Part shown: piece by piece, positions 42,237 to 47,807 of the stretch
Layout of the letters: each line of letters begins with the position of its first letter
Numbering within the stretch: the stretch's first letter is position 1
Source of the DNA: Escherichia phage vB_EcoM-Pr121LW
Direction: 5' to 3' (one strand)
Length of the DNA stretch: 64,000 nucleotides
Sequence record: MH752840.1
Notes under the pieces: generated by a model
Database searches by the model: none
What the model saw: only the letters and a program-made list of their open reading frames with translations
Told to the model about the DNA's origin: nothing
Program-made: the position numbers and the translations under genes

Positions 42237-42311
42237 GCCCTGTTAGCTTAGTGGATAAAGCAGCGGCCTTCTAAGCCGTTGACACTGGTTCGAGTCCAGT
42301 ACGGGGTGCCA
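42237..42311 (+). tRNA. tRNA-Arg (anticodon TCT)
   Basis: Manual cloverleaf: 7-bp acceptor stem, D-stem GCTT/AAGC, anticodon loop CTTCTAA, T-loop TTCGAGT, encoded CCA. Confidence 0.75.
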
Positions 42312-42442
42312 AGTTCTTTTTAATGTAGCTTACTTTAGCAGAGTAAATCTTCGGCAAGTGGCGGTAACCACTTTTACCGATACCTCATAGTTAGTGGTGA
42401 GAACACTAGCTATTTTAAAAAGAATTTAAATATTAGTATTTA

Positions 42443-42530
42443 GGTGAGTTAATTCCGTAGGGGTAGCGGGGCAGACTGTAAATCTGTTATCATTGCGATT
42501 CGGGTGGTTCGACTCCATCACTCACCACCA
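42443..42530 (+). tRNA. tRNA-Tyr (anticodon GTA), long variable arm
   Basis: Perfect 7-bp acceptor stem GGTGAGT/ACTCACC, anticodon arm GCAGA-CTGTAAA-TCTGT, T-loop TTCGACT, CCA; 88 nt. Confidence 0.7.
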
Positions 42531-42644
42531 AATTTATATTTTTAAATGCATAAATTATACAGATAATGGCATTGATATTTATCGTCGTTTATACTAGTCA
42601 CTAACTGCTCGAAAATCAGTGTCATTATCAGTATTGTTTATAAA

Positions 42645-42735
42645 AGAGGGTAGGGAGCAATGGTGCTCAAGCGGTCTTGAAAACCGTCCCGTTGAGGATG
42701 ACTCGATGATGGTTCGATTCCATTACCCTCTGCCA
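42645..42735 (+). tRNA. tRNA-Ser (anticodon TGA), long variable arm
   Basis: Perfect 7-bp acceptor stem AGAGGGT/ACCCTCT, anticodon loop CTTGAAA, T-loop TTCGATT, CCA; 91 nt. Confidence 0.7.
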
Positions 42736-42833
42736 TATTGTTGACCTTGTAATTAAGCGAAAGCCGGAAGCAGAACCGGATTATCAAATGTTACAGTCGT
42801 CATCGCCGACTAGCAACATTGTCAACATACTGA

Positions 42834-42932
42834 GCTAGGTAAGCCCTTTGGCAAGGGCGAGGATTTTTAATCCTGAAAATAGACGAGGTAGTCGTTGAAT
42901 ACATAGGTGGTTCGATTCCACCACCTAGCACC
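42834..42932 (+). tRNA. atypical tRNA-like gene (anticodon loop TTTTTAA, possibly Lys-TTT), ~30-nt extra region, no full CCA
   Basis: Acceptor GCTAGGT/ACCTAGC, D-arm GCCC-TTTGGCAA-GGGC, T-arm GGTGG-TTCGATT-CCACC are clean; anticodon stem and variable region are irregular. Confidence 0.35.
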
Positions 42933-42937
42933 TTTTT

Positions 42938-43013
42938 GCTGATGTAGCACAATTGGTAGTGCAATTGATTTGTAATCAATAGGTTGCAGGTTCAAGTCCT
43001 GCCATCAGCACCA
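42938..43013 (+). tRNA. tRNA-Thr (anticodon TGT)
   Basis: Acceptor GCTGATG/CATCAGC, D-stem GCAC/GTGC, anticodon arm ATTGA-TTTGTAA-TCAAT, T-loop TTCAAGT, CCA. Confidence 0.8.
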
Positions 43014-43014
43014 T

Positions 43015-43089
43015 GGCCCTGTAGCTGGAAGGTTCAAGCAAGCGACTCATAATCGCCAGACGGTGGTTCAATTCCACCCAGGGCCACCA
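43015..43089 (+). tRNA. tRNA-Met or tRNA-Ile2 (anticodon CAT), elongator type
   Basis: Acceptor GGCCCTG/CAGGGCC with G1-C72 pair, anticodon loop CTCATAA, T-arm GGTGG-TTCAATT-CCACC, CCA. Confidence 0.7.
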
Positions 43090-43100
43090 AATAGTAAATA

Positions 43101-43177
43101 CTCCGCGTAGCTCAGCTTGGTAGAGCGCCTGATTTGGGATCAGGAGGTCGAGTGTTCGAATCACTCCGTGGAGACCA
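43101..43177 (+). tRNA. tRNA-Pro (anticodon TGG)
   Basis: C1-G72 acceptor pair as in bacterial tRNA-Pro, D-stem GCTC/GAGC, anticodon arm CCTGA-TTTGGGA-TCAGG, T-loop TTCGAAT, CCA. Confidence 0.8.
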
Positions 43178-43598: not shown

Positions 43599-43997
43599 AT
43601 GATTTCAGGTTTAACATGGCTTAGTAGGTATAGAGGGATCATAAAAGGTTTAGTTTTTGCAGCGGCTATAGGTACAGCTTATCTTGGGGCCGTGTATTGG
43701 TTTAACTCTAAGCTTAATGATGCCTACCAAGAGGGTGTGTCAGCAACAGAGTTAAAGTGGGAACGGATCCTTGATCAGCAACAAAAGCAGGCCGACAAAA
43801 TTAAAATGGGCCACGCAGAGGAGGTTAAAAACCTTGAAAAATCTCTTTCTGATCTGCAGGATAAATTAAATATAGCTGAGAGGGCAGGTAGAGAAAAGCA
43901 GATTATCTACCTCCAATCACCTGAAGGTAAGAAGTCAACACTCCCTGATCAGCTTATAGATATTTATAATGAGAGTATCAATCAGGAGGATCTATGA
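43599..43997 (+). CDS. i-spanin (Rz-like): N-terminal TM anchor plus coiled coil
   Basis: TM segment GLVFAAAIGTAYLGAVYWF followed by charged helical region; downstream overlapping lipoprotein gene. Confidence 0.5.
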   Translation: MISGLTWLSRYRGIIKGLVFAAAIGTAYLGAVYWFNSKLNDAYQEGVSATELKWERILDQQQKQADKIKMGHAEEVKNLEKSLSDLQDKLNIAERAGREKQIIYLQSPEGKKSTLPDQLIDIYNESINQEDL

Positions 43998-44281
43998 GAG
44001 TTGCTGCACTGTTTATTGTGTGCTTTTTATTATGCGGGTGTGCAACCAGCGTTGAGAGAGAATACAAGATTGACCCTCCTGATGTAGGAAGGTTGATTGT
44101 TAAACCCCCGGAAGGTGCCATGAAACCACCTGCTAAAGCTATGCCTTTGAAGAAAGGTGCGCCAGATGCAGTGAATTCTGGCATTATGAGGGATAATAAT
44201 CTGTCTTGTAGCAATGATAGAGCTAAATTGATCATTTTGCAAGACTATATTAGAACACTGTTTCCAAAGGAGAGAGGTTAA
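43994..44281 (+). CDS. o-spanin (Rz1-like) outer-membrane lipoprotein
   Basis: Signal peptide with lipobox-like LLCGCAT, proline-rich mature region; 4-nt overlap with previous gene. Confidence 0.5.
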   Translation: MRVAALFIVCFLLCGCATSVEREYKIDPPDVGRLIVKPPEGAMKPPAKAMPLKKGAPDAVNSGIMRDNNLSCSNDRAKLIILQDYIRTLFPKERG

Positions 44282-44706
44282 TGTCTAAGATTTACGGACC
44301 GTGTTCTGAAAAGCAGAAGATGATCCTCGAAAACGATGCAGATATTTTGGTAATCGGCGGTGCCGCAGGGTCTGGCAAGTCGTTCCTCTTGCAGTTGATG
44401 CCGCTTAAAATTATCGATGACCCCCACAGCTCTGTGGTTATGTTCCGAAGAACAACCCCACAGTTGGAAGGTGAGGGTGGACTATGGCCTAAAGCAGTAG
44501 CTATTTATAGCGATCTGCCTGAAAACATTAAGCCAAAGTTCAGAGAGAAGGATCATAAGTTCATTTTTCCACGGTTTGATCCGAACACTGGCAAGTGGGA
44601 TAGAAGCAAAAAGGGAGCTGTTGTAAAATACTGCCACATGGAGTATGTACAAGATAAGCTTAACCATCAAGGGCTTGAGTACACCATGGTTTGCTTCGAT
44701 GAGGGT
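44281..44706 (+). CDS. terminase large subunit, exon 1 (ATPase N-terminal part)
   Basis: Walker A GGAAGSGKS and Walker B MVCFDE; frame closes with TAA right at the intron start. Confidence 0.7.
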
Positions 44707-45026
44707 TAATTTGTAGCTCTCGTAAAACCTCCCTAATTGCGGGGAAATCTTTACTATTAATACCACCAACCTGTCATGGTAACATGATAGAGGCTTCGAA
44801 GAGAGATCGAAGGTATGGTAACAGTGTGTTAATTTAGATAATCCGCAGCGAAGCATCCGAGAGGATGAACGTTCAACGACTAGTCGAAAGACGTAGAATC
44901 AAGCGATTCGAAACGGGAGGGTAAGCGGTTGTTGTCGCTTATAAGATATAGTCTGGTCTGCATGGAGACATGCAGCTGCCTGAAAAATGGCGGGGCAAGA
45001 CTAGCGACCTTGCCCGAACATAGACG
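44707..45026 (+). ncRNA. group I self-splicing intron (ORF-less) in the terminase large subunit gene; boundaries approximate
   Basis: Conserved elements in order: P AATTGCGGGGAAA (~44737), Q AATCCGCAGC (~44842), R GTTCAACGACTAGTC (~44870), S AAGATATAGTC (~44940); intron begins GGT|TAATT like T4 td; no ORF inside. Confidence 0.65.
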
Positions 45027-46148
45027 ACACAATTCGAATGGGAGCAGATAGACTATCTGATGTCTCGTCTGCGATCTCAGTCAAAGTATCCATCAAGGAT
45101 GGTTATCAGCTGTAACCCTGATTCAGAACACATGCTTGCCAAACTGGTTAGATGGTGGTTGGACGATGAAGGGTATCCAGATCCGGAGAAATGTGGTAAG
45201 AAAAGATATTTTATCCGACGCGACGGTGAATTTATTTGGGGGGACTCTAAGGAGGAGTTGATAGAGAAATACACCACGGTTAACGGACTGGGTGTAGAGA
45301 TCAAGCCAAGACCGTTGTCATTCTCGTTCATAGGCGCAACAATATTCGATAATCCTGTCTGTTTGAGAGACAACCCAGAATACCTTGCTTTCCTCGAAGG
45401 TCTACCAGAGCTGGAAAAAGCTCAGCTTCTCCATGGTAACTGGTTTGCAAAGCCTGAGGGTGCAAACTATTTTCAAAGATCTTTCCTTCGTGATGCCGAT
45501 AGAGTACCCCTTGGATCAGTATCTTGCAGGGCATGGGATAAGGCAGGAACCGAGAGAACTTCTGGCAATAAATTTCCTGACTTTACTGCCAGTATTAAGG
45601 TAAGTAAAGATAGCGACGGCTTTTATTACCTGTCAGGGGATTATTGTCCTGAAAACGTGGATGACGGGAGGTATTCCACAGGTCTGGAAGGCAAGTTCTG
45701 TAAAAAGGCTGGTGAACGAGATGTGATCATCAGGAAACAGGCGCAGTTTGATGGTGATGATTGCATAATCGTATTCTCTGTGGACCCTGGTCAGGCAGGT
45801 AAGAGTGAGTTCTTAACCTCATCCAGATCCTTGCTCGCAGAAGGGTTCAGGGTTGAAGAAGACCCAATGCCTTCCAACAAGTCTAAACTGACAAGGTTCT
45901 CACCTTTTGCCAATCTTGCCCAACAAGGGATGGTGAGGATTGTAAAATCCAGTTTCCATCCTGATACTCTGGAAGCATTTCTGACCGAACTTGAAAAATT
46001 CAACGGGGAAAGATCAACATTTAACAGAAAAGACGACTGGGCTGACTGTGTAGCTTCTGCAATTAATTTCCTGGAGAAAGAGGAGGTAGCACTTCCTTGT
46101 GTGATTCCATCAATCTCATCACCTTCTATGTTCAAGCGTTTTATCTAG
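45027..46148 (+). CDS. terminase large subunit, exon 2 (nuclease domain); exon start uncertain within 45027-45060
   Basis: Frame open from 45024; 45027 follows a G and restores frame with exon 1; product size and position before the putative portal gene. Confidence 0.6.
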   Translation, partial: TQFEWEQIDYLMSRLRSQSKYPSRMVISCNPDSEHMLAKLVRWWLDDEGYPDPEKCGKKRYFIRRDGEFIWGDSKEELIEKYTTVNGLGVEIKPRPLSFSFIGATIFDNPVCLRDNPEYLAFLEGLPELEKAQLLHGNWFAKPEGANYFQRSFLRDADRVPLGSVSCRAWDKAGTERTSGNKFPDFTASIKVSKDSDGFYYLSGDYCPENVDDGRYSTGLEGKFCKKAGERDVIIRKQAQFDGDDCIIVFSVDPGQAGKSEFLTSSRSLLAEGFRVEEDPMPSNKSKLTRFSPFANLAQQGMVRIVKSSFHPDTLEAFLTELEKFNGERSTFNRKDDWADCVASAINFLEKEEVALPCVIPSISSPSMFKRFI

Positions 46149-46250: not shown

Positions 46251-47807
46251 GTGTCCAAAAAGAACCGCAGGAAACACAACGCCACAGCCAAAACTGTGAA
46301 TAAATCTGGGAACGCAGGCGCACCAACTCATAATGTTCGTATGAGTGAGATCGGTTCTGGCGCACTTTCCCAAATTATGGCAGAATCGCAATCTATGATG
46401 GTTGAGGAATTGCGTTGGCCTCAGCTGATTGCCACAGTGGAGACTATGAAATGTGATTCCACAGTTGCTACTGCCTTAGATACAAAATACGTTTTCATCA
46501 CGAAAGCATTTAATGATTTTAAGATCCTTTATAATGTTAAAAGTGAAGACTCTAAGAAAGCTGCCGAGCTTATAGAGTATTCTTTGCGTAATTTGGCAAA
46601 CCAACAAACCCTTCGGGATATTGCAAGAAGCGCAGCTACCTTTAACGAGTATGGTTTTTCACTGTTTGAGAAAGTATACCGCAGAGAGAAAGAAGGTAAA
46701 TATGCTGGGATGCTTCTTATTGATAAAATTGCATTCCGACCTCAGGCCAGTCTGTCTAGATCAGAGCCGTTTGTCTTTGACAAGAATAGTAGAACGCTGA
46801 CAGGTATTTATCAGTCACCTAATGCATTTCTAAACACTCAGAATGCACGCTGGGCTGGACCTCTTGCTGCAATGCCTTCAAAAGGCTTTAATGAGCCTGA
46901 AATTTTCATCCCTGCTAAAAAGCTTATGCTCATGACCCTGTCAGGAACAGAATCTAACCCTGCAGGTGTGTCACCTATGATAGGTTGCTACAGATCTTTC
47001 CGTGAGAAAGTTCTGATTGAAAACCTTGAGGTTGTTGGCTGTTCCAAAGACCTTGGTGGTGTACTTGAGCTGAAAATTCCTTCCAATATTTTGAACAAGG
47101 CCAGCATTGACCCGAATTCAATGGAAGGGAGAATGGTTGCAGATCTTATGCTTGACGCAGCAAACGCCCATAGTGGTGAGCAAAGTTTCTTTATACTTCC
47201 GTCTGATAGAGATAAGTCTGGTAAAGAGCTTTACTCCATGACCCTGAAGGGGGTTGACGGTATGGGTAAGCAGTATTCCACTAAAGATTTGATTGATGCC
47301 CGTAAGAAGGCGATTCTTGACCGTTTCGGTGCTGGCTTTATTAACCTCGGTAACGATAACGTTGGATCCTTCTCTCTGTCTGAGTCAAAACAGTCTATCC
47401 ATGGTCATTTTGTTCAGCGTGATATAGATATTATCACTGAAGCCTTCAATAAAGATCTTATTCCACAGCTTCTGGCATTGAATGGTATCATCCTTGAAGA
47501 TGATGATATGCCTAAACTGAAACCTGGTCTGATTGAAGAGGTGGACATGGAGAGCTTCTCCAAGTTTGTCCAGAGGATCGGTGCTGTAGGTTACTTGCCA
47601 AAAACTCCTGCAGTAATTAATAAGATTCTTGAAGTAGGTGGGTTTGATGAAAGATTTGACGAGGACATGGATCAGGAAGAGCTGATGAAGCTCTTGGGCC
47701 AGGACATCAGTAGAGCTGGTGATGGAATGGCTGCAGGATCCACTGGTAACGGCACTTCTAAGATGTCATCAACCAGAGATAATTCCATATCCAACATGGA
47801 AAATTAA
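46251..47807 (+). CDS. putative portal protein (GTG start)
   Basis: 518 aa, immediately downstream of terminase; position and size only. Confidence 0.45.
   Translation: MSKKNRRKHNATAKTVNKSGNAGAPTHNVRMSEIGSGALSQIMAESQSMMVEELRWPQLIATVETMKCDSTVATALDTKYVFITKAFNDFKILYNVKSEDSKKAAELIEYSLRNLANQQTLRDIARSAATFNEYGFSLFEKVYRREKEGKYAGMLLIDKIAFRPQASLSRSEPFVFDKNSRTLTGIYQSPNAFLNTQNARWAGPLAAMPSKGFNEPEIFIPAKKLMLMTLSGTESNPAGVSPMIGCYRSFREKVLIENLEVVGCSKDLGGVLELKIPSNILNKASIDPNSMEGRMVADLMLDAANAHSGEQSFFILPSDRDKSGKELYSMTLKGVDGMGKQYSTKDLIDARKKAILDRFGAGFINLGNDNVGSFSLSESKQSIHGHFVQRDIDIITEAFNKDLIPQLLALNGIILEDDDMPKLKPGLIEEVDMESFSKFVQRIGAVGYLPKTPAVINKILEVGGFDERFDEDMDQEELMKLLGQDISRAGDGMAAGSTGNGTSKMSSTRDNSISNMEN

Follow-up and report, generated by a model that had tools for sequence, protein, structure and literature searches.

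Among genes for the large subunit of terminase, that of Lactobacillus phage LL-H was the first in which a group I intron was described (Mikkonen & Alatossava 1995, as cited in PMC3606486 and PMC8785237). LL-H, whose host is Gram-positive, is an unrelated siphovirus, and PMC8785237 uses it as an example of a homing-endonuclease-encoding intron. The paper on phage rV5 (Kropinski et al. 2013; PMC3606486) includes a section entitled 'Introns in terminase', and the gene (DQ832317, 'ORF64ABC') is deposited as a joined CDS; for phage LL12, both the record and the paper annotate terL as an 'intron-containing gene', again with a joined CDS (MH491969, CPT_LL12_064; PMC6658697). No secondary structure, subgroup or experimental test of splicing is given in either paper (PMC3606486, PMC6658697). 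In the Pectobacterium phages CB7 and phiTE (Certrevirus, the same subfamily), a td-like group I intron occupies the orthologous Walker B motif of terL, and splicing of the CB7 intron in vivo has been demonstrated by RT-PCR, with Sanger sequencing of the products (PMC7344957).

We analyzed the terL locus in a window of 64 kb (the whole stretch of DNA under study) from a Vequintavirus, i.e., an rV5-like myovirus of E. coli. The same element is found at the same site in rV5, with 96.9% identity over 320 nt, and in LL12, with 99% identity across the locus. The intron is therefore already known, having been published for rV5 in 2013 and annotated in GenBank for rV5 and LL12, and the finding raises no new question. 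We consider it very likely that terL in this window is interrupted, inside its Walker B block, by an ORF-less, td-like group I intron that would be spliced out to give a 515-aa TerL, and that this insertion is selfish and optional. It should be noted that the intron of CB7 lies 6 nt upstream (GAT/GAA, i.e., D/EGTQF, compared to DEG/TQF in the window; the slash marks the splice site here and below) and has an HNH endonuclease aboard; because of this offset, we regard it as a distinct insertion. A sequence match that was initially taken for the terL intron of phiTE proved to be the RNR intron of that phage, and the terL intron of CB7 was located separately.

The divided terL gene and its junction

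The gene is read on the plus strand from the ATG at 44281 to the stop codon at 46146-46148. Exon 1 (44281-44706; 142 codons, the last of them GGT) encodes Walker A, GGAAGSGKS, at 44356-44382 and closes with Walker B, MVCFDEG, the final base of which is 44706. Exon 2 (45027-46148; 373 codons and the stop) encodes the remainder of the ATPase domain and an RNaseH-like nuclease domain. In the Pfam search, the first ORF matched positions 2-104 of Terminase_6N, and the second matched positions 110-211 together with Terminase_6C; these matches are complementary, indicating that the ORFs are halves of one protein. An earlier note, made from the letters of this DNA, had claimed both Walker motifs and placed the end of the ATPase domain at 44706, with the frame resuming about 320 nt later. 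All of the note's statements on the sequence were confirmed, both motifs being encoded in exon 1, and comparison with intron-less alleles sets the gap at exactly 320 nt.

The limits of the insertion, 44707-45026, were fixed using intron-less relatives, namely Logan contig L006 and seven further phage genomes that were compared by sequence. The intron splits terL between G142 and T143, and the spliced protein junction is therefore expected to be ...FDEG/TQFEW..., with the exact join 44281..44706 + 45027..46148. The predicted RNA junction is GAGGGU/ACACAA, i.e., GAUGAGGGU/ACACAAUUC, and the peptide that spans it is ...CFDEGTQFEWEQ... The predicted product of 515 aa is 100% identical, with 100% query coverage, to a homologue of 515 aa (P0001; BLASTP) in which, as in other homologues, the two exons are contiguous. 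Uninterrupted 515-aa homologues are present in close and distant relatives; those with 47-71% identity align across the junction from end to end, in the kind of alignment that the earlier note had suggested. The junction falls inside a D-E-G-T-x-F block that is invariant in homologues down to 47% identity.

The bases flanking the insertion differ between the two classes of alleles. All eight intron-bearing alleles that were examined end exon 1 with GGT, so that U, the wobble base of P1, is at position -1, and all eight clean intron-less alleles have GGC, with C at -1. These synonymous exon states are strictly linked across the site: GGT / ACA CAA in intron-bearing alleles and GGC / ACG CAG in intron-less ones. 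Contig L006 was considered as a possible spliced transcript and rejected on two grounds: three synonymous positions around the junction set it apart from the intron-bearing alleles, and complete phage genomes contain intron-less junctions identical to its own.

At the 3' end, the window intron has two candidate terminal guanosines, 45023 and 45026. We place the 3' splice site directly after G45026 (omega-G), which is conserved in 8/8 intron-bearing alleles and yields the DEG/TQFEW of the intron-less alleles. A site after G45023, which would produce DEG-T-TQF and a protein of 516 aa, was rejected: the other seven intron-bearing alleles have A at this position, and the intron-less alleles encode DEGTQF. 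The first three bases of the intron (44707-44709) form an in-frame TAA, which would halt the translation of unspliced RNA. No plausible ORF was found in the intron, as the earlier note had stated; stop codons are present in all three forward frames, and the longest ORF is 40 aa, with a TTG start, and runs on into exon 2.

Helix model and subgroup

The Rfam model Intron_gpI (RF00028), the search recommended by the earlier note, matched 44697-44975 over its full length (model positions 1-253 of 253) with 84.1 bits and an E-value of 6e-20; the gathering score of this model is 50 bits. The core elements P (44735-44747), Q (44840-44849), R (44871-44885) and S (44943-44953), which the note had listed in canonical order, were located by reading the sequence, P/Q forming P4 with 6 bp and R/S forming P7 with 5 bp. 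For the S motif, the window contains a single exact copy; with at most one mismatch allowed, there are five matches compared to 1.2 expected, and the other near-matches are isolated.

Helix P1 (44699-44723) consists of 10 bp between the exon bases AUGAGGGU plus intron UA (44699-44708) and an internal guide (44714-44723), with a U44706•G44716 wobble at the 5' splice site and the cut predicted after U44706; the Rfam alignment, the MFE fold and the allele pattern at -1 all point to this helix. P2 is missing, being deleted in the Rfam alignment. P3 pairs CCUCCC (44728-44733) with GGGAGG (44915-44920); compensatory changes are seen at four of its six pairs, and all cells (100%) are paired. P4 pairs UGCGGG (44738-44743) with UCCGCA (44842-44847), with a compensation from G-C to U-A in 3/7 sequences. 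The MFE fold provides P5 (44747-44750/44836-44839) and a three-way extension specific to this intron, composed of P5a (44756-44768/44816-44833), P5b (44771-44778/44783-44790, with a GUAA loop) and P5c (44794-44799/44807-44812); among alleles, there are two compensatory double substitutions in P5a and one in P5b. P6 (44848-44850/44870-44872) and P6a (44854-44858/44863-44867) are based on the Rfam alignment, the fold and covariation; the GAGA loop of P6a is GAAA in EcoIv14a, and the GNRA form is maintained.

The P7 pseudoknot, assigned manually, pairs GACUA (44878-44882) with UAGUC (44949-44953), all five pairs being invariant and paired in 7/7 introns; consequently, P7 carries no covariation information even though it is 100% paired. 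Its G44878-C44953 pair, invariant in all seven aligned introns, would occupy the expected guanosine-binding position. Two hairpins follow, P7.1 (44883-44885/44890-44892, with a GAAA loop) and P7.2 (44896-44900/44905-44909), both predicted by the fold and both with compensatory changes. In the P8 hairpin (44921-44928/44935-44942), five of the eight pairs are compensatory. The fold and covariation also give P9 (44958-44964/44969-44975, with a GAGA loop), a weak P9.1 (44978-44980/44989-44991) and P9.2 (44993-44999/45009-45015). For P10, we found at most 4 bp, between exon positions +3 to +6 (ACAA) and intron UUGU (44711-44714); this pairing is non-canonical, with an offset of 2 nt, and the U to C change at 44714 in LL12 would disrupt it. 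A canonical P10 is unconvincing. In many group I introns, P10 is dispensable.

In the window copy, each of the 98 modelled pairs is canonical. The intron has an MFE z-score of -5.1, and none of 100 shuffled sequences was equally stable; together with the Rfam score, this lies well outside chance expectation. Across seven introns from four host genes, 91.7% of the cells are paired, compared to 37-39% when the partners are slid; both sides have changed in 27 of the 72 pairs, and 0/500 shuffles reach the observed pairing. Within the alleles of the terL intron, in addition to the three compensatory double substitutions, there are six pair-preserving single changes at five positions, and both tetraloop changes retain the GNRA form. 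Since MAFFT misplaced the insertion in the endonuclease-bearing alleles around P8-P9, the alignment rows of these alleles were left out in that region in favour of the coordinates of BLAST blocks. The helix model, with P1, P3-P9.2 and the P7 pseudoknot, is supported by covariation.

In the Michel-Westhof classification, the subgroup IA criterion is the presence of the extra hairpins P7.1 and P7.2 between the 5' strand of P7 and the 3' strand of P3, and the td intron of phage T4 belongs to subgroup IA2. As both hairpins were found, along with similarity to td, we place the intron in subgroup IA and, in our own reading, describe it as td-like, IA2. The resemblance in the 5' ends, GGT/TAATT, had been pointed out in the earlier note and is borne out when the ends are set side by side: td starts CTTGGGT/TAATTGAGG, likewise GGGU/UAAUU with an in-frame UAA. 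The two introns agree in their P, Q, R and S cores, in a 3' end of ...GAACAUA..G/ and in the layout of the 3' domain; from the 3' strand of P7 to P9.2, the identity is 81% over 79 nt (td matches in many T4-like genomes). They differ in that td possesses P2 and carries I-TevI in an extension of P6, whereas the window intron lacks P2 and has the three-way P5 extension; the td host gene functions in nucleotide metabolism, while that of the window intron is terL. More distant matches are the introns in the phiKZ RNA-polymerase, phiNIT1 RNR and phiAGATE terL genes, which are full-length Rfam group I matches (87.6, 94 and 60.2 bits, respectively). Their cores are 68-73% identical to the window intron over 53-58% of its length, and they have the core helices in common with it, with compensatory changes. 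They all have a short P5 and reside in other host genes or sites; the phiAGATE terL intron is upstream of Walker B.

Presence, absence and endonuclease content among relatives

We sampled 50 terL genes of Vequintaviruses systematically and verified representatives by sequence; 26 were intron-free, one had only the second terL intron, and 23 had the intron described above, ORF-less in 10 cases and with a homing endonuclease gene (HEG) in 13. In the HEG-bearing form (HeinrichReichert, HdK5, JES2013 and Murica-type phages), the P8 stretch corresponding to 44923-44937 is replaced by a longer stem with an ORF for a 196-aa Endonuclease_7 protein (PF02945), the ATG of which is in the 5' strand of P8 and the TAG stop within the S element. 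Outside P8 the ribozyme is identical, and the splice sites are the same; the window copy differs in being ORF-less.

A second group I intron interrupts terL in rV5, RudolfGeigy, HdK5 and others; in rV5, it holds an HNH homing endonuclease at ~45340 in window coordinates, and in L003 (1634-1860), it scores 95.6 bits with Rfam. The window has an empty site at 45340-45344. We found no homologues of either endonuclease in the 64-kb window, nor any further group I intron at a Rfam E-value of 0.1 or below. The DNA polymerase intron reported in LL12 has no counterpart in the window, the DNA polymerase gene probably being outside it.

The presence, absence and HEG content of the two terL introns are freely mixed among these relatives. 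With respect to mobility, a presence/absence polymorphism at a precise site was found, and an intron-encoded homing endonuclease was not found in the window copy. The Endonuclease VII-type gene located in P8 of the relatives probably drove the spread of the ribozyme. Given that the first intron is missing in 27/50 of the sampled genes, the exons of which are 95-99% identical, it behaves as a dispensable, selfish insertion rather than as something that the control of packaging requires.

A more specific scenario is possible, although we think that it probably does not hold: the ORF-less copy could be more than a decayed remnant, namely a stage of an ongoing cycle of intron gain, HEG loss and intron loss at the two terL sites of Vequintaviruses, in which the endonuclease VII-type enzyme supplied by co-infecting relatives would mobilise it in trans. 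If so, the difference between GGT / ACA CAA and GGC / ACG CAG would represent a very short tract of co-conversion, which would also adapt P1 and give protection from cleavage, and the wholly different P8 stems would mean that a HEG independently entered a ribozyme that was already in place. At two sites in one gene, ~120 near-identical genomes have alleles that are empty, ORF-less or endonuclease-bearing, and this mix might serve as a natural data set on the turnover of introns and homing endonucleases.

Predicted splicing and the state of the gene

We found no splicing experiments on Vequintavirus terL in the literature searched, and the splicing proposed for the window intron therefore rests on homology and structure. 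According to this model, terL would be transcribed as a single pre-mRNA, and the intron would fold into the P3-P9 core, with P1 presenting U44706 paired to G44716. An external guanosine would attack after U44706, and the freed 3'-OH of exon 1 would then attack after the terminal G45026, joining GAG GGU to ACA CAA in an mRNA for the 515-aa TerL. Ribosomes on unspliced RNA are expected to stop at the TAA at the start of the intron.

The intron could instead be dead, with TerL made as two polypeptides (residues 1-142 and the product of the ORF starting with the ATG at 45060) that are assembled after translation. Many depositors annotate two separate terL CDSs, an ATG is available at 45060, and a precedent for a non-splicing split gene, NrdA of phage Aeh1 (split by mobE), is cited in PMC7344957. 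However, a protein started at this ATG would lose the invariant T143, F145, Q149 and Y152, and the split would fall at Walker B and cut the ATPase fold in two; the sole Shine-Dalgarno-like sequence, GGGAG, ~15 nt 5' of the ATG, is present equally in the intron-less alleles. Moreover, all core elements of the intron are intact and under purifying and compensatory selection, and none of the intron-bearing alleles departs from U at -1 or from the terminal G. We consider a dead intron very improbable. Slightly less probable still is an adaptive regulatory intron, kept for timing or gating terminase production, with packaging dependent on it: the location in an essential late gene and the in-frame TAA, which couples translation to splicing, would suit such a role, but nearly identical relatives do without the intron, the free mixing of intron and HEG states fits a neutral or selfish element better, and an invariant catalytic motif is the usual target of homing endonucleases.

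A selfish intron that is spliced from terL remains the preferred reading, and the claim of the earlier note that packaging would depend on a ribozyme holds within this genome but fails as a general requirement. The intron adds to the cases in which a selfish ribozyme occupies the best-conserved motif of a gene that is essential to a phage. The practical use of the observation is in annotation: these phages are candidates for use in therapy and biocontrol, and in many of their GenBank records terL is still split into two or three 'terminase' ORFs.

Boundaries of the terL intron

The interruption of the large terminase subunit gene (terL) is best explained by a splicing-competent group I intron, and sequence comparison together with the modelled structure makes it very probable that its removal rebuilds a TerL of 515 aa. 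The sequence statements of the earlier note, which had proposed such an intron, all hold: exon 1 is a 142-codon ORF running from ATG 44281 through Walker A (GGAAGSGKS, 44356-44382) to ...MVCFDEG at 44706, with TAA directly after it, and the core elements P (44735-44747), Q (44840-44849), R (44871-44885), and S (44943-44953) were located. The covariance-model search suggested in that note gave a strong match of Rfam Intron_gpI at 44697-44975 on the plus strand (84.1 bits versus a gathering score of 50, E = 6e-20) that spans the whole model (positions 1-253), and the fold energy of the region is -113.6 kcal/mol, compared to -85.3 ± 5.5 for shuffles (z = -5.1). As claimed, the intron has no ORF, stops being abundant in all three forward frames; a permissive Rfam scan (E <= 0.1) found no second group I intron in the whole 64-kb window.

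Using the conceptually spliced protein as a BLASTP query, we retrieved a 100% identical protein of 515 aa (P0001), which a Logan contig (L006) encodes in a single gene without interruption. Alignment of this contig to the window left only 44707-45026 unmatched; thus, the gap of about 320 nt is exactly 320 nt. The possibility that the contig represents spliced RNA was rejected, because its junction reads GAG GGC ACG CAG versus GAG GGT / intron / ACA CAA in the window, and because the same intron-less junction is found in the complete genomes of phages I29, 10C2, EmilHeitz, EduardKellenberger, SYGMH1, C9, and rV5_ev147. Judged from these sequences, the contig is a genomic intron-less allele. The last codon of exon 1 is GGT in 8 of 8 intron-bearing alleles and GGC in 8 of 8 clean intron-less alleles, and the last intron base is G in all eight alleles that have one. 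The terminal G is placed at 45026; the upstream candidate, G45023, was rejected because the seven other alleles with the intron have A there. The correct join, 44281..44706 + 45027..46148, yields 515 aa. The junction DEG/TQF falls inside the block D140 E141 G142 T143 x F145, which does not vary among uninterrupted homologues with identities as low as 47%; in Pfam terms, exon 1 covers Terminase_6N positions 2-104, and exon 2 covers positions 110-211 as well as Terminase_6C.

Structure, covariation, and translation

The structure model combined the Rfam alignment, an MFE fold, and a manually placed P7 pseudoknot; all 98 of its pairs are canonical in the window. P1 has 10 bp, with U44706 opposite G44716 as a U•G wobble, P2 is absent, and the P5 extension is three-way (P5a, P5b, P5c). 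The 3' domain consists of P9, a weak P9.1, and P9.2, in this order, and the intron ends in ...GAACAUAGACG. Both P7.1 and P7.2 are found; by general classification criteria, these hairpins, together with a 5' start and a 3' end like those of the T4 td intron (CTTGGGT/TAATTGAGG and ...GAACATAATG/, respectively), point to subgroup IA2.

Variation among ORF-less alleles (LL12, rV5, RudolfGeigy, and HMD-6, compared with the window) respects the helix model. Compensatory double substitutions affect three pairs (44758/44831 and 44760/44829 in P5a, 44775/44786 in P5b), and six single changes at five positions (44759, 44761, 44775, 44928, 45015) preserve pairing. Two tetraloop changes, one of them in EcoIv14a, which carries a homing endonuclease gene (HEG), still give GNRA, and the only two pair breaks belong to LL12 and lie at weak ends of helices. 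We also aligned the window intron with RudolfGeigy intron 2 and the introns of phiKZ (RNA polymerase), phiNIT1 (RNR), phiAGATE (terL), HMD-6, and rV5, the Rfam group I match being confirmed for all except HMD-6. Across these seven introns 91.7% of cells were paired, versus 37-39% with partners slid by 1-3 columns, a measure favoured by the derivation of the structure from the window sequence, which affects counts of compensatory pairs less. Changes on both sides were seen in 27 of 72 pairs, the observed pairing or covariation score was reached by none of 500 shuffles, and P7 was invariant and 100% paired.

Alternatively, TerL could be made as separate polypeptides, the second starting at ATG 45060. 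This is unlikely: the intron core is intact and compensatory evolution is still seen, neither the U at -1 nor the terminal G varies among the intron-bearing alleles, and a start at this ATG would remove four invariant residues; the only upstream signal is a poorly spaced GGGAG common to intron-less alleles. The first three intron positions form an in-frame TAA, as they do in td, and this codon would halt ribosomes where the intron begins. In td, such a stop protects ribozyme folding.

Intron alleles among Vequintaviruses and other terL introns

We sampled 50 full-length terL loci of Vequintaviruses systematically (even-step), classed them by matched-span length, and checked representatives at the sequence level. 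No intron was present in 26 loci; six had an ORF-less intron at the window site (intron 1), and nine had intron 1 with a HEG. A second intron (intron 2) occurred alone and ORF-less in one locus, with intron 1 and both ORF-less in three, with an HNH gene beside an ORF-less intron 1 in one (the rV5 type), and with HEGs in both introns in four. Since intron 1 is missing from 27 of the 50, an adaptive regulatory role is not supported, and the dependence of packaging on a ribozyme suggested in the earlier note would apply within this genome only.

In HEG-bearing intron 1, a different, longer stem replaces the P8 hairpin (44923-44937) and holds a 196-aa ORF for Endonuclease_7 (PF02945, 75.5 bits); this ORF has its ATG in the 5' strand of P8, and its stop coincides with the TAG of the S element AAGATATAGTC. 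Intron 2 (Rfam 95.6 bits; 1634-1911 of relative L003) lies at ~45340 within GATIFDNP, with U at -1 and a terminal G, and measures ~270 nt when ORF-less and ~980 nt with an HNH_3 endonuclease (L002, 1641-2622), the form found in rV5. The window is an empty site for intron 2 (45340-45344), and no homologues of either HEG were found anywhere in its 64 kb.

The intron-less terL of Escherichia phage V18 (NC_041937) contains 9 duplicated nt (GGTTTGCTT) and lacks one G precisely where intron 1 inserts, equivalent to window ~44690-44706; the reading frame is broken, and the gene is annotated as two CDSs. Sequencing error could explain the lesion, as could a scar left by repair at the homing site. It should also be noted that GenBank MG0656xx records labelled as Campylobacter jejuni phages (C2, C9, C12, A12a, and others), of which at least one carries the flag UNVERIFIED, match E. 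coli Vequintaviruses in terL at 97-99.9% identity, and this host assignment looks doubtful.

The feature is real and was read correctly in the earlier note. It has been published before and is annotated in sequence records: 'Introns in terminase' is the heading of a section in Kropinski et al. 2013 (PMC3606486), terL is a three-part join in GenBank DQ832317, the LL12 record states 'intron-containing gene; intron splice site predicted based on homology to AKU44155', and BASEL phage records also use joined CDSs. No experiments on the Vequintavirus terL intron itself were found in the literature searched. Introns in terL are known for LL-H (cited in PMC3606486 and PMC8785237) and for CB7/phiTE, where splicing was shown by RT-PCR (PMC7344957). 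The td-like intron of CB7, a Pectobacterium phage of the sister genus Certrevirus, scores 35.2 bits in Rfam despite its HEG insert (L023, 384-1347) and is inserted at GAT/GAA (D/EGTQF), 6 nt upstream of the Vequintavirus site DEG/TQF; therefore, one Walker B motif contains two independent insertion sites. A related group I intron in terL of Bacillus phage phiAGATE (L020, 468-734; Rfam 60.2 bits; 68% identity over 57% of the window intron) occupies a different site, upstream of Walker B. In Aeromonas phage 2L372X (MK813938, 65199-66023), the TerL N-terminal 193 aa match in two pieces that span ~260 nt beyond expectation beneath two 'terminase' CDSs, which could reflect a further ORF-less intron, located in the same part of a distant terL. 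To this record we add the join to the nucleotide, a model of the individual helices that covariation supports, the finding that the HEG of relatives sits in P8, the strict association of GGT at the splice site with presence of the intron and of GGC with its absence, and the distance of 6 nt that separates this insertion from that in Certrevirus.

Gene neighbourhood

The 2-kb terL region shares 99.0% identity with Escherichia phage LL12 and 97-98% with rV5, slur phages, several BASEL phages, and many other Vequintavirus members. The i-spanin (43599-43997) and o-spanin (43994-44281) genes, overlapping at 43994-43997, precede terL (from 44281), and a Mu-type portal gene follows (46251-47807). The o-spanin stop and the terL start share TAATG (44278-44283); from these overlaps, the lysis genes appear to be translationally coupled to the packaging gene. 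An antisense ORF of 124 aa (44482-44856, minus strand) straddling the exon 1/intron boundary is without support and probably spurious.

A tRNA cluster adjoins the upstream side (42237-43177). A tRNA-like gene of 99 nt within it (42834-42932, plus strand), in which the extra arm is long, was reported by ARAGORN as 'tRNA-???' with a 4-base anticodon and by Rfam as tRNA at 37 bits; its LL12 homologue is annotated as tRNA-Lys, 'isotype prediction inconsistent'. The segment 42443-42527, tRNA-Tyr in LL12, was called by Rfam only and not by ARAGORN, and a tRNA-Ser at threshold (42645-42735) was called by ARAGORN only and not by Rfam.
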